A DNA stretch of 64,000 nucleotides from Escherichia coli (GTDB lineage: Bacteria > Pseudomonadota > Gammaproteobacteria > Enterobacterales > Enterobacteriaceae), in assembly GCF_016903815.1 (NCBI RefSeq), contig NZ_CP069973.1; one strand, 5' to 3'. Shown here piece after piece: positions 59,602 through 61,237 of the stretch (within the stretch, counting starts at the first letter, position 1; every line of letters starts with the position of its first letter). A model generated the notes under the pieces. It was not told the DNA's origin. It saw nothing but the letters and a program-made list of their open reading frames with translations, and ran no database searches. Position numbers and translations under genes: made by a program.

Positions 59602-59687
59602 GCACGAAAAAGGCCGCAGAGTTTCACCCCTGCGGCCTGATCCGGGCGCAAATTGCCATTACGGCAGCCTGACGCCCGCATGACACG

Positions 59688-59795
59688 TTACTTCCGCTTG
59701 TTCAGCCAGTTCATGATCATACTGGCAAGAATGCCAGCAATGACCGGAGCCGCTAAATCATGCCAGAAGGCCATGCCCAGTTCTGCGAGCGTCAT
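59688..59795 (-). CDS. ldr: Type I toxin Ldr, 35 aa (copy 1)
   Basis: MTLAELGMAFWHDLAAPVIAGILASMIMNWLNKRK, the Ldr small hydrophobic toxin family. Confidence 0.8.
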   Translation of the reverse strand: MTLAELGMAFWHDLAAPVIAGILASMIMNWLNKRK

Positions 59796-59843
59796 ATAGC
59801 CGCCTGTGTTGTAATGACAACGTTTCGCGGCTATTCTTGAGTG

Positions 59844-59912
59844 GTCTAGAGTCAAGATTAGCCCCCGTGGTGTTGTCAGGTGCATACCTGCAACGTGCGG
59901 GGGTTTTCTCTC
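59844..59912 (+). ncRNA. rdl: Rdl antisense RNA (copy 1)
   Basis: gtctagagtcaagattagcccccgtggtgttgtcaggtgcatacctgcaacgtgcgggggttttctct with its own terminator hairpin, antisense to the ldr leader; matches RdlD as I recall it. Confidence 0.55.
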
Positions 59913-60170
59913 TCCAGCAACCAATGCCACCAGGGATAAAGCCCCCGCAACATTGCGCCTCACCGGAACCTTTCCGGCTTGCCGCTGATTCTACGGCCAT
60001 TTTTGTTCGTCGAAATCCATCATTTCTTCACTCTGTGCTGTGCATTCAGCAGAATATTATCCGCTTGCAACCGTTGCATTTTTCTTACGAAAAAGGCCGC
60101 AGAGTTTTATCCCTGCGGCCTGGTCCGGGCGCAAATTGCCATTACGGCAGCCTGACGCCCGTCTGACACG

Positions 60171-60278
60171 TTACTTCCGCTTGTTCAGCCAGTTCACGAT
60201 CAGACTGGCAAGAATGCCAGCAATGACCGGAGCCGCTAAATCATGCCAGAAGGCCATGCCCAGCTCTGCGAGCGTCAT
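60171..60278 (-). CDS. ldr: Type I toxin Ldr, 35 aa (copy 2)
   Basis: MTLAELGMAFWHDLAAPVIAGILASLIVNWLNKRK; differs from copy 1 at two residues. Confidence 0.8.
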   Translation of the reverse strand: MTLAELGMAFWHDLAAPVIAGILASLIVNWLNKRK

Positions 60279-60326
60279 ATAGCCGCCTGAGTTGTAATGA
60301 CAACGTTTCGCGGCTATTCTTGAATG

Positions 60327-60395
60327 GTCTAGATGCAAGAATGGCCCCCGTGGTGTTGTCAGGTGCATACCTGCAACGTGCGGGGGTTTTCTCTC
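60327..60395 (+). ncRNA. rdl: Rdl antisense RNA (copy 2)
   Basis: Same terminator hairpin (gcccccgtgg...cgtgcggggg tttt) as copy 1; 5' part diverged (gtctagatgcaagaatgg). Confidence 0.5.
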
Positions 60396-60654
60396 TCCAG
60401 CAACCAATGCCACCAGGGATAAAGCCCCCCGCAACATTGCGCCTCACCGGAACCCTTCCGGCTTGCCGCTGATTCTACGGCCATTTTTGTTCGTCGAAAT
60501 CCATCACTTCTTCACTCTGTGCTGTGCATTCAGCAGAATATTATCCGCTTGCAACCGTTGCATTTTTCTTACGAAAAAGGCCGCAGAGTTTTATCCCTGC
60601 GGCCTGGTCCGGGCGCAAATTGCCATTACGGCAGCCTGACGCCCGTCTGACACG

Positions 60655-60762
60655 TTACTTCCGCTTATTCAGCCAGTTCACGATCATGCTGGCAAGAATG
60701 CCAGCAATGACCGGAGCCGCTAAATCATGCCAGAAGGCCATGCCCAGCTCTGCGAGCGTCAT
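60655..60762 (-). CDS. ldrD: Type I toxin Ldr, 35 aa (copy 3; likely the ldrD-position copy next to yhjV)
   Basis: MTLAELGMAFWHDLAAPVIAGILASMIVNWLNKRK; its upstream region beyond about 60960 is unique rather than repeat-derived. Confidence 0.8.
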   Translation of the reverse strand: MTLAELGMAFWHDLAAPVIAGILASMIVNWLNKRK

Positions 60763-60810
60763 ATAGCCGCCTCTGTTGTAATGACAACGTTTCGCGGCTA
60801 TTCTTGTATT

Positions 60811-60880
60811 GTTTGGATGCAAGAATGGCCCCCGTGGTGTTGTCAGGTGCATACCTGCAACGTGCGGGGGTTTTCTCTCT
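60811..60880 (+). ncRNA. rdlD: Rdl antisense RNA (copy 3)
   Basis: Conserved terminator hairpin and T-run, with a 5' part distinct from copies 1 and 2 (gtttggatgcaagaatgg). Confidence 0.5.
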
Positions 60881-61237
60881 CCAGCAACCAATGCCACCAG
60901 GGATTAAGCCCCCGCAACATTGCGTCTCACCGGAACCTTTCCGGCTTGCCGCTGATTTTACGATTGCTTTTTACCGTCAGCACCCGGCAATCTTCCTCAT
61001 TGCGCGATGCCTTCCAGCTTAATTTCTTTATTTGCAATAGTTGCAGTTCATATCCGAGCTGACTCCAGACTGGTAGTGAAATGCGCAATTTTGTAGAATT
61101 GCGCCTCCTCGCGACCTCCCCAGTGAATCTGTTGCCTCATTTTTTGCATACTGCGTATTCGACTTCTCCACCTGTTGCGCAAGAGAAACTGGGTTTATTC
61201 ATTTTTGCGAGGCCGACTTCTTTCTGGACAGGACTTT

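Follow-up and report, generated by a model that had tools for sequence, protein, structure and literature searches.

The intergenic region between bcsG (57922-59601, plus strand) and yhjV (plus strand, starting at about 61239), both placed by open reading frames and RefSeq annotation, is occupied by one tandem array in the 64,000-nt stretch of Escherichia coli DNA analysed here (the window). Tandem Repeats Finder locates this array at 59604-60962, with a period of 484, 2.8 copies, 96% matches and no indels, and a repeat search within the window returned three 300-nt copies starting at 59604, 60087 and 60571, with spacings of 483 and 484 nt and identities of 94-95%. An earlier note on this DNA had described a tandem triplication of a unit of about 483 bp at the bcsG-yhjV junction, at 59607-60960, and both programs bear this out, with computed ends that agree to within 3 nt. 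Unit 1 (59604-60086, minus strand, 483 bp), delimited like the others from the repeat coordinates together with a RefSeq CDS (here WP_001521561.1), contains the ldr terminator, the ldr ORF, a 5' UTR opposite which the Rdl gene is encoded, the likely -10 box of the ldr promoter and an inter-unit spacer. Unit 2 (60087-60570, minus strand, 484 bp; WP_000170738.1) is 1 nt longer because of a G5-to-G6 change in its leader ORF. Unit 3 (60571-60962, minus strand; WP_001295224.1) is incomplete and is delimited by the shared core only, consisting of the roughly 390 nt common to the units with the yhjV-side flank in place of the spacer; past about 60960 and up to 61014, the similarity of this flank to the inter-unit spacer is only 74%. 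From unit to unit, 4-5% of positions differ. In RefSeq, the matching strain 7/2 has three annotated toxins, all named "toxin Ldr family protein".

The three toxins are each 35 aa in length and are encoded on the minus strand at 59688-59795 (copy 1, MTLAELGMAFWHDLAAPVIAGILASMIMNWLNKRK), 60171-60278 (copy 2, ...ILASLIVNWLNKRK) and 60655-60762 (copy 3, ...ILASMIVNWLNKRK). Their C-terminal parts are ...ASMIMNWLNKRK, ...ASLIVNWLNKRK and ...ASMIVNWLNKRK, respectively, so that the translated ORFs read exactly as the SMIMNW, SLIVNW and SMIVNW differences listed in the earlier note. Copies 2 and 3 differ from copy 1 by 1-2 residues. Specifically, copy 1 carries a rare V28M variant and copy 2 a rare M26L variant, and copy 3 is the commonest E. 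coli D-type peptide, present in 24 of the 33 intact D-type units sampled. The copy 1 peptide belongs to the Pfam family Ldr_toxin (PF13940), with residues 1-35 aligned to model positions 1-35 of 35 (E=2e-25); an NCBIfam scan of the three 35-aa peptides gave no match, probably owing to NCBI naming these peptides by another rule, and Pfam was used instead. Across strains, ldr diversity is 0.008 at codon positions 1 and 2 versus 0.043 at position 3, and the peptide, judged from these aligned genes, is under purifying selection. The toxicity of LdrD upon overexpression and its relief by RdlD are known from the literature for the K-12 pair; for the V28M and M26L alleles, toxicity and expression are putative.

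Each unit also contains, on the plus strand, a 66-nt Rdl gene, located at 59844-59909 (copy 1), 60327-60392 (copy 2) and 60811-60876 (copy 3). All three match the Rfam rdlD family (RF01813) over positions 1-66 of 66, with scores of 87, 81.8 and 81.7 bits, respectively, relative to a gathering score of 50. With three of three ORFs intact and three of three rdlD matches full-length, the earlier description of each unit as a 35-aa Ldr toxin with an Rdl-like antisense RNA stands. Each Rdl begins 49 nt upstream of the start codon of its own ldr and is antisense to the ldr 5' UTR, overlapping neither the ldr ORF nor its ribosome-binding site. When aligned, copy 1 is identical to K-12 RdlD (66/66 nt), copy 2 differs from copy 1 at nt 8, 9, 15 and 17, and copy 3 departs from copy 2 at nt 3 and 5, which with the preceding four makes six differences from copy 1 (nt 3, 5, 8, 9, 15 and 17). 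The differences among the three copies are confined to these six positions, all in the 5' part, as had been noticed in more general terms (the rdl 5' regions differ). Copy 1 is predicted to fold into a free 5' tail followed by a stem-loop (z=-4.0), and copies 2 and 3 take the same form, the stem-loop being stable. Over the 49 nt of the stem-loop region, complementarity to each of the three ldr mRNAs is perfect. The tail (nt 1-17), which is hypervariable, lies at 59844-59860 in unit 1, with its equivalents at 60327-60343 in unit 2 and 60811-60827 in unit 3, all on the plus strand.

Terminators are found for both transcripts of each unit, one for ldr and one for Rdl, which amounts to six versus 1.5 expected. 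The intrinsic terminator of the ldr mRNA in unit 1 (59611-59638, minus strand) is composed of an 11-bp stem and a T run, and the same element recurs at 60094-60121 and 60578-60605 (minus strand) in units 2 and 3. A consensus promoter scan found nothing at its threshold, so both promoters were assigned by eye. The likely -10 boxes of the ldr promoters are TAGAAT in unit 1 (59988-59993) and unit 2 (60472-60477) and TAAAAT in unit 3 (60955-60960), all on the minus strand, and were placed from the sequence together with the length of the ldr mRNA, which we take to be about 370 nt. The likely Rdl promoter of unit 1 (59809-59837, plus strand; TTGTAA, 17 nt, TATTCT), recognised from its sequence, has 8 of 12 matches, which is below the scan threshold, and ends 7 nt before the Rdl 5' end, as set by the Rfam match and the alignment with K-12 RdlD.

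The ldr 5' UTR contains a further ORF of 25 codons, located at 59876-59953 (minus strand) in unit 1, where it reads MLRGLYPWWHWLLERENPRTLQVCT with GGTGAGG just upstream, and at 60843-60920 (minus strand) in unit 3. This leader ORF and its upstream GGTGAGG are kept in 33 of 34 units, and it ends inside the Rdl target; it may correspond to ldrX, the regulatory leader ORF of the literature. The 1-nt insertion of unit 2 puts the leader AUG into the ldr frame, and the resulting fused ORF (60171-60437, minus strand) has 88 codons. This frameshift could alter or abolish normal control of the unit 2 copy, and the fusion, which is lineage-specific, may represent an 88-aa extended toxin or a copy escaping normal control. 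Another candidate for ldrX starts at a second AUG, which faces the apical loop of Rdl and shares the ldr frame in 29 of 34 units; the corresponding 65-codon extension of ldr was considered as a conserved coding feature and rejected, as five of the 34 units break it.

Both the bcsG-yhjV site and the D-type sequence that mark the LDR-D subtype are present here, and no evidence against the LDR-D identification was found. We are highly confident that the locus is the E. coli LDR-D in its common three-copy form, with three ldr/rdl type I modules that appear intact lying in tandem from bcsG to yhjV. In the mechanism proposed for such modules, the minus strand of each would give rise to an mRNA of about 370-380 nt, with a long 5' UTR, encoding the 35-aa hydrophobic toxin of the inner membrane, and the plus strand to a 66-nt Rdl fully complementary to the middle of the ldr 5' UTR. 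Rdl would pair with the UTR and block translation of the leader ORF, to which translation of ldr would be coupled, much as in hok/mok/sok, and the duplex would then be cut by RNase III, so that no toxin would be made while Rdl is present. The ldrD/rdlD model of leader-ORF block and RNase III cleavage is drawn from reviews and primary work, and its ldrX part from secondary descriptions. We infer that all three copies are expressed in this strain.

Several known systems provide points of comparison. The ldrD/rdlD pair (LDR-D) of E. coli K-12, reportedly described by Kawano and colleagues in 2002, occupies the same bcsG-yhjV site and has the same unit architecture and a 35-aa toxin that is 1-2 residues apart; it differs in being one unit rather than three in tandem and in having F3 in the toxin where L3 is found here, while copies 1 and 2 of the window carry V28M and M26L and the leader ORF of unit 2 is frameshifted. 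The K-12 ldrABC/rdlABC locus is likewise a tandem array of three homologous modules, with the Rdl stem and terminator conserved, but it represents another subfamily with about 79-80% DNA identity, a 535-bp period, and a different peptide, Rdl loop and chromosomal site. With hok/mok/sok, the ldr modules share a long 5' UTR, an antisense RNA located 5' of the toxin ORF and bearing a single-stranded 5' tail, proposed control through a leader ORF and cleavage of the duplex by RNase III; the toxin families and sequences are unrelated, however, and coupling to the leader ORF is proven for hok and only proposed for ldr. A published counterpart to the array analysed here is that of BL21(DE3) (PMC5435950), which agrees in locus, copy number and 483-bp period, and in which the tails of units 1 and 3 of the window also occur as alleles. 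The order and set of tail alleles are different, being K-12 type, GTTTGGATG type and GTTTGGGTT type in the B strain and K-12 type, GTCTAGATG type and GTTTGGATG type in the window, and unit 1 of the B strain encodes the K-12 LdrD peptide.

Copy number at this site varies widely. At bcsG-yhjV, the literature gives a single ldrD/rdlD pair for K-12 and three pairs for BL21(DE3), these three having been annotated on the basis of the BL21(DE3) transcriptome structure (Kim et al. 2017, PMC5435950). Comparison with the K-12 locus confirmed a single copy at bcsG-yhjV, and the tandem ldrABC array, which the earlier note places elsewhere in K-12, was found between kdsA and chaA. A census using a D-specific ldr segment (96-100% match) counted 12,397 D-type units in 5,404 complete E. 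coli genomes, with a median of 3 and a range of 1-6 per genome; this segment skips ldrABC, hitting one place per K-12 record. In a systematic sample of 60 genomes, one copy was present in 25, two in six, three in 18 and four in 11, and arrays of two, three and four copies were found in individual strains. The inter-unit spacer had also been considered as a counter of multi-copy arrays, but its total of 3,301 of 5,426 genomes at 80% coverage or more is only an upper bound because some rows are two joined pieces around a single unit, and the D-specific ldr segment was used instead. The three-copy state, found in about 30% of complete genomes, is common, published and annotated, and the array is therefore ordinary, being the usual E. 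coli state. By itself it matters little, other than to mark K-12 as the less typical strain at bcsG-yhjV and as a poor guide to the copy number of type I toxin-antitoxin modules.

A further feature is the Rdl 5' tail. Across the 12 related strains that were compared, nucleotide diversity reaches 0.21 in the tail and 0.37 at Rdl nt 3-9, versus 0.02-0.04 in the rest of the unit, with hardly any variation in the toxin or in the Rdl stem-loop. The ldr ORF, 50 nt away, provides a baseline of 0.043 at third-codon sites and 0.018 at four-fold sites, so that the tail is 5-12 times as diverse as these sites; in bootstraps of the four-fold sites, none exceeded 0.09. At least ten discrete tail alleles are common to several strains, and in the ten multi-copy D-type arrays compared, no allele occurs twice in one array. 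This last pattern was rejected as a formal test, given that the strains share ancestry and that K-12 RdlB and RdlC share a tail.

One explanation of the tail, and a perfectly credible one that we would stop short of asserting, is that its variability reflects relaxed constraint or a local hot spot of mutation or recombination, with no selection for cognate discrimination. The identical RdlB and RdlC tails within one K-12 array imply that insulation is not obligatory, and the non-cognate Rdl2 and Rdl3 are only 2 nt apart and complementary to all three mRNAs through the stem-loop region. Constraint from mRNA structure may also act on the synonymous ldr sites, in which case the baseline would be too low, and the sample is one of only 12 related strains. 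Relaxation or a hot spot is less easily reconciled with the excess of tail diversity over nearby synonymous sites, with variants that are a few common discrete alleles rather than scattered singletons, with the failure of any tail allele to repeat within the ten arrays, and with the proven discrimination among paralogs in Sib/Ibs and Zor/Orz.

The other explanation, which we put forward tentatively, is that Rdl nt 1-17, with nt 3-9, 15 and 17 foremost, may determine specificity, selection keeping them different from copy to copy in the tandem D-type arrays. In that case, each Rdl would silence mainly the ldr mRNA of its own unit, giving a set of insulated modules in place of a single redundant one. 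The pattern of variation suggests selection for cognate-pair discrimination, a lead that goes beyond the searchable literature. Like the D-type copies, ibs/sib and zor/orz consist of paralogous toxin/antisense pairs arranged in tandem within a single intergenic region; experiments have shown that the small RNAs of those two systems tell cognate from non-cognate mRNAs by a few variable nucleotides, whereas for the Rdl copies such discrimination is deduced only from how the tails vary. If selection for discrimination is indeed at work, the D array of Ldr/Rdl would be a further natural case, beside Sib/Ibs and Zor/Orz, in which a few nucleotides keep paralogous antisense RNAs insulated from one another, and the thousands of sequenced arrays would constitute a ready allelic series for the evolution of antisense recognition codes.

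It is unlikely that one or more of the units are decaying, non-functional copies and the array a form of repeat debris. Inactivation is frequent among chromosomal type I loci, hok being one example, and decay does occur at this very locus, where strain 55989 has a frameshifted fourth ldr copy; in the window, the 1-nt insertion of unit 2 moves the conserved leader ORF into the ldr frame. Against decay, the ldr ORFs (3/3), the Rdl genes (3/3) and the terminators (6/6) are intact, the peptide is under purifying selection across strains, and the BL21(DE3) pairs at the same locus were annotated from transcriptome structure (PMC5435950).

Implicit in the earlier note was a recent triplication, specific to this strain or lineage, after which the units diversified. 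There are two units more than in K-12, units 1 and 2 are closely similar, with 18 differences across all 484 nt, and in the sample of 12 strains V28M and M26L each occur in this lineage alone. A recent origin is nonetheless very improbable, in view of the frequency of three-copy arrays and the median of three per genome. Distances were computed on the shared core without the hot spot, replacing a matrix over all 484 nt in which the distance of the last unit was inflated, as that unit has yhjV flank in place of spacer at its 3' end. With the Rdl tail left aside, each unit differs by 4-9 of 356 nt from units of other strains versus 9-12 from its array neighbours; for example, the core of unit 1 is four differences from units of 2014C-4135, 55989 and CI5 and 12 from its own unit 3. 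On average, units with the same tail differ across strains at 4.3 of 356 sites outside the tail, and neighbours within an array at 9.0. The three tail alleles all recur elsewhere, with unit 1 having that of K-12 RdlD, unit 2 that of ST131 unit 3, and unit 3 the common penultimate-unit allele of other strains. A genome scan with a strict pattern and one genome per species (eight loci), which shows presence outside E. coli and is no census, found the locus next to bcsG in one copy in E. whittamii and Pseudocitrobacter and in two copies in Escherichia sp. E1V33 and a divergent 'E. coli', so that two-copy arrays exist in other Escherichia lineages. Because each unit is closer to units of other strains than to its neighbours, the paralogs predate the strain splits. 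By these sequence comparisons, the triplication is not recent and the divergence of the units arose before this strain; the claim of diversification after duplication thus holds insofar as the units do differ, but their closest relatives are in other strains and the divergence did not take place within this one. Rather, the array is an old locus of variable copy number (1-6 units), shaped by unequal crossing-over.

Finally, tandem repeats of about 0.5 kb are open to mis-assembly from short reads, but expansion of the repeat by the assembler, which the earlier note had named as what would refute it, can be dismissed, since the units are distinguishable at those 4-5% of positions, multi-copy arrays occur here in thousands of complete genomes, and this array of 1,358 nt, with 483/484 spacing and only 1-3 mismatches, recurs in four complete, independent assemblies of Swedish, German, US and Swiss origin.

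A single tandem array of ldr/rdl units of the ldrD (D) sequence type occupies the junction between bcsG (57922-59601, plus strand) and yhjV (plus strand, starting at about 61239). The array spans 59604-60962 with a period of 484, 2.8 copies, 96% matches, and no indels according to Tandem Repeats Finder, and a repeat search placed three in-register copies at 59604, 60087, and 60571 (spacings of 483 and 484). Numbered from the bcsG side, the units encode on the minus strand three 35-codon ldr ORFs (59688-59795, 60171-60278, and 60655-60762) whose C-terminal parts read SMIMNW, SLIVNW, and SMIVNW, respectively, just as the earlier note had reported; the Ldr peptide matches Pfam Ldr_toxin end to end (E=2e-25). 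On the plus strand, full-length matches to Rfam rdlD (RF01813), with scores of 82-87 bits (gathering score, 50), locate the Rdl antisense RNAs at 59844-59909, 60327-60392, and 60811-60876. Each unit also possesses two terminators, a strong intrinsic one that serves the transcript of the minus strand and that of Rdl on the plus strand; six such sites were found in the terminator scan of the array vs. 1.5 expected by chance. Taken as a whole, the repeats, ORFs, rdlD and Ldr_toxin matches, and terminators establish the array as real, far beyond chance, and confirm that the three tandem modules recognized from the sequence alone are indeed ldr/rdl. An assembly artefact that expanded or collapsed the repeat is ruled out by four independent complete assemblies, in each of which the 1,358-nt array recurs with 1-3 mismatches.

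The array is already known, being an ordinary polymorphic locus in its median state that has been both published and annotated. Specifically, E. coli strain 7/2 (NZ_CP023820.1) matches the window at 100% identity, and between its bcsG and yhjV RefSeq lists three genes under the name "type I toxin-antitoxin system toxin Ldr family". K-12 has one ldrD here in contrast to the window's three units, and its ldrABC array sits elsewhere, between kdsA and chaA; the earlier note was right on both counts. The K-12 RdlD is identical to Rdl copy 1 of the window (66/66 nt), and the annotated 5' ends of the K-12 rdl genes coincide with the Rfam boundaries used here. BL21(DE3) likewise possesses three ldrD/rdlD pairs between bcsG and yhjV, relative to one in K-12 (Kim et al. 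2017, PMC5435950), and earlier work described lineage-specific duplications and losses in the LdrD and LdrB groups, treating tandem duplication as typical for type I loci (Fozo et al. 2010, PMC2887945). To count D-type units, megablast was run with a 112-nt ldr ORF segment sharing no 28-mer with ABC-type units (those of the ldrABC/rdlABC sequence type); it hits one place per D-type unit and exactly one place in each K-12 record. The count came to 12,397 units, spread over 5,404 of the 5,426 complete E. coli genomes; these genomes average 2.3 units each (median 3, range 1-6). In an evenly spaced sample of 60 genomes, 25 had one copy, six had two, 18 had three, and 11 had four, and inspection of single loci confirmed that arrays of two, three, and four units exist, with a frameshifted ldr copy in that of strain 55989. 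A 4.83-Mb record labelled "strain DH5alpha" (NZ_CM135829.1) has three Ldr genes at bcsG-yhjV, and since K-12 derivatives have one, the label is doubtful.

The age of the copies was addressed by aligning 34 units taken from 12 strains at places along the ranking, using 356 shared-core columns outside the Rdl tail (Rdl nt 1-17). Units with the same tail allele in different strains differ at a mean of 4.3 columns, neighbours within one array at 9.0, and units with different tail alleles in different strains at 9.05. For example, window unit 1 shows 4 differences from units of three other strains, compared with 12 from unit 3 in the same array. Distances within arrays thus exceed those between same-tail units of different strains, so the paralogs are older than the splits between strains, and their differences are not being erased by concerted evolution. 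Beyond typical E. coli, a search of one genome per species found D-type units adjoining bcsG in E. whittamii (one copy), Escherichia sp. E1V33 (two tandem copies), a divergent "E. coli" representative (two copies), and Pseudocitrobacter (one copy, 79% identity). A 503-bp contig labelled "Bacillus sp. EB106-08-02-XG196" (NZ_JABWSY010000055.1, coverage 0.66) is 96% identical to the E. coli LDR-D unit and almost certainly represents contamination of the public assembly. In the window, the yhjV-side flank of the last unit (60963-61014) is a diverged paralog of the inter-unit spacer (59982-60086; 74% identity), and in some single-copy strains the flank is nearer to the spacer sequence, giving two-piece matches; the resemblance is consistent with differing end points of unequal crossover.

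Overproduction of LdrD is toxic and RdlD relieves this toxicity; a Sok-like mode of action has been proposed, in which RdlD would block translation of ldrX, a leader ORF coupled to the translation of ldr (Wen and Fozo 2014; T1TAdb). In this model, Rdl would pair with the ldr 5' UTR and stop translation of the leader and hence of ldr, and the duplex would then be cleaved by RNase III, of which ldrD-rdlD is an abundant substrate in vivo (Huang et al. 2020). A promoter scan reported no promoter, so the likely -10 box of unit 1 (TAGAAT, 59993-59988, minus strand) was read by eye; together with the terminator at 59638-59611 (minus strand), it points to a likely mRNA of about 375 nt, of which the 5' UTR takes up about 185 nt. 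The predicted fold of Rdl is a stable stem-loop that leaves the 5' tail free. Rdl is complementary to a central stretch of this 5' UTR; the complementarity stops 49 nt short of the ldr AUG, on its upstream side, so that Rdl spans neither the start codon nor the ribosome-binding site. Two candidate leader ORFs were found in the 5' UTR. One has 25 codons, is preceded by GGTGAGG, ends inside the Rdl target, and is kept in 33 of 34 units. The other begins with an AUG that directly faces the GCAU apical loop of Rdl (nt 39-42), at 59883-59885 on the minus strand in unit 1 and at the corresponding sites of units 2 and 3. It is in frame with ldr, without an intervening stop in 29 of 34 units, yielding a 65-codon ORF; five units break the frame. 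This AUG might be the published ldrX start.

The sole lead beyond the searchable literature, of modest interest if true, is the hypervariable Rdl tail, which we consider a possible specificity code, though slightly less probable than the contrary. That the Rdl 5' regions differ among the units had been noticed earlier, and the differences in the shared core do cluster at 59840-59860, where Rdl has its 5' end; all three copies have the same stem-loop sequence. Among the 34 units, π reaches 0.21 over Rdl nt 1-17 and 0.37 over nt 3-9, relative to 0.02-0.04 in the rest of the unit and, within ldr, 0.043 at third codon positions, 0.018 at four-fold sites, and 0.008 at codon positions 1 and 2; the sites serving as baseline may themselves be constrained by mRNA structure. 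The Ldr peptide is identical in 24 of 33 intact copies. At least 10 discrete tail alleles, common to several strains, occur in this sample of 12 related strains, and none is repeated within any of the 10 multi-copy arrays compared, where mismatches are mostly 4-6 of 17 nt. For the duplex of tail and target, predicted energies run from -25 to -27 kcal/mol when the pair is cognate and from -6 to -24 kcal/mol when it is not. Such a pattern would be expected if the tail were a recognition element and selection kept paralogs insulated. Insulation has been demonstrated experimentally for Sib/Ibs (Han et al. 2010) and likewise for Zor/Orz, whereas the likeness of the Rdl tail to these systems lies in its pattern of variation. 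Several caveats apply: Rdl2 and Rdl3 of the window are only 2 nt apart, and the 49-nt stem-loop region stays perfectly complementary to the mRNA of every copy. In addition, K-12 RdlB and RdlC (2359-2424 and 2894-2961 of the extracted locus L024) share one identical 5' tail within the same tandem array, unlike the D-type arrays examined. No paper testing discrimination among Rdl paralogs was found in the open-access texts searched.

Unit 2 carries a lineage-specific oddity, the fusion of its leader to ldr. A 1-nt insertion within the conserved 25-codon leader ORF, which turns G5 into G6 on the minus strand and falls in the plus-strand C-run near 60426-60431, brings the AUG of the leader (60437) into the ldr frame, creating an 88-codon ORF (60171-60437, minus strand). 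Homopolymer sequencing error is ruled out, as the insertion is identical in four independent assemblies of the lineage (7/2, Nord1, FDAARGOS_1282, and N1131).

Elsewhere, bcsG is intact in the window and is an annotated pseudogene in its three closest relatives (comparison loci L013, L022, and L023): Nord1 and N1131 have an internal stop, and FDAARGOS_1282 has a partial gene. These pseudogenes hint at repeated loss of phosphoethanolamine-cellulose modification in the lineage. Finally, Rfam matched the sRNA ES205 (19146-19217, plus strand, 105 bits), GadY (24997-25110, plus strand, 150 bits), and the shuA/chuA 5' UTR thermoregulator (9443-9474, minus strand, 60 bits), the last of which suggests the presence of the chu haem-uptake locus in the strain.
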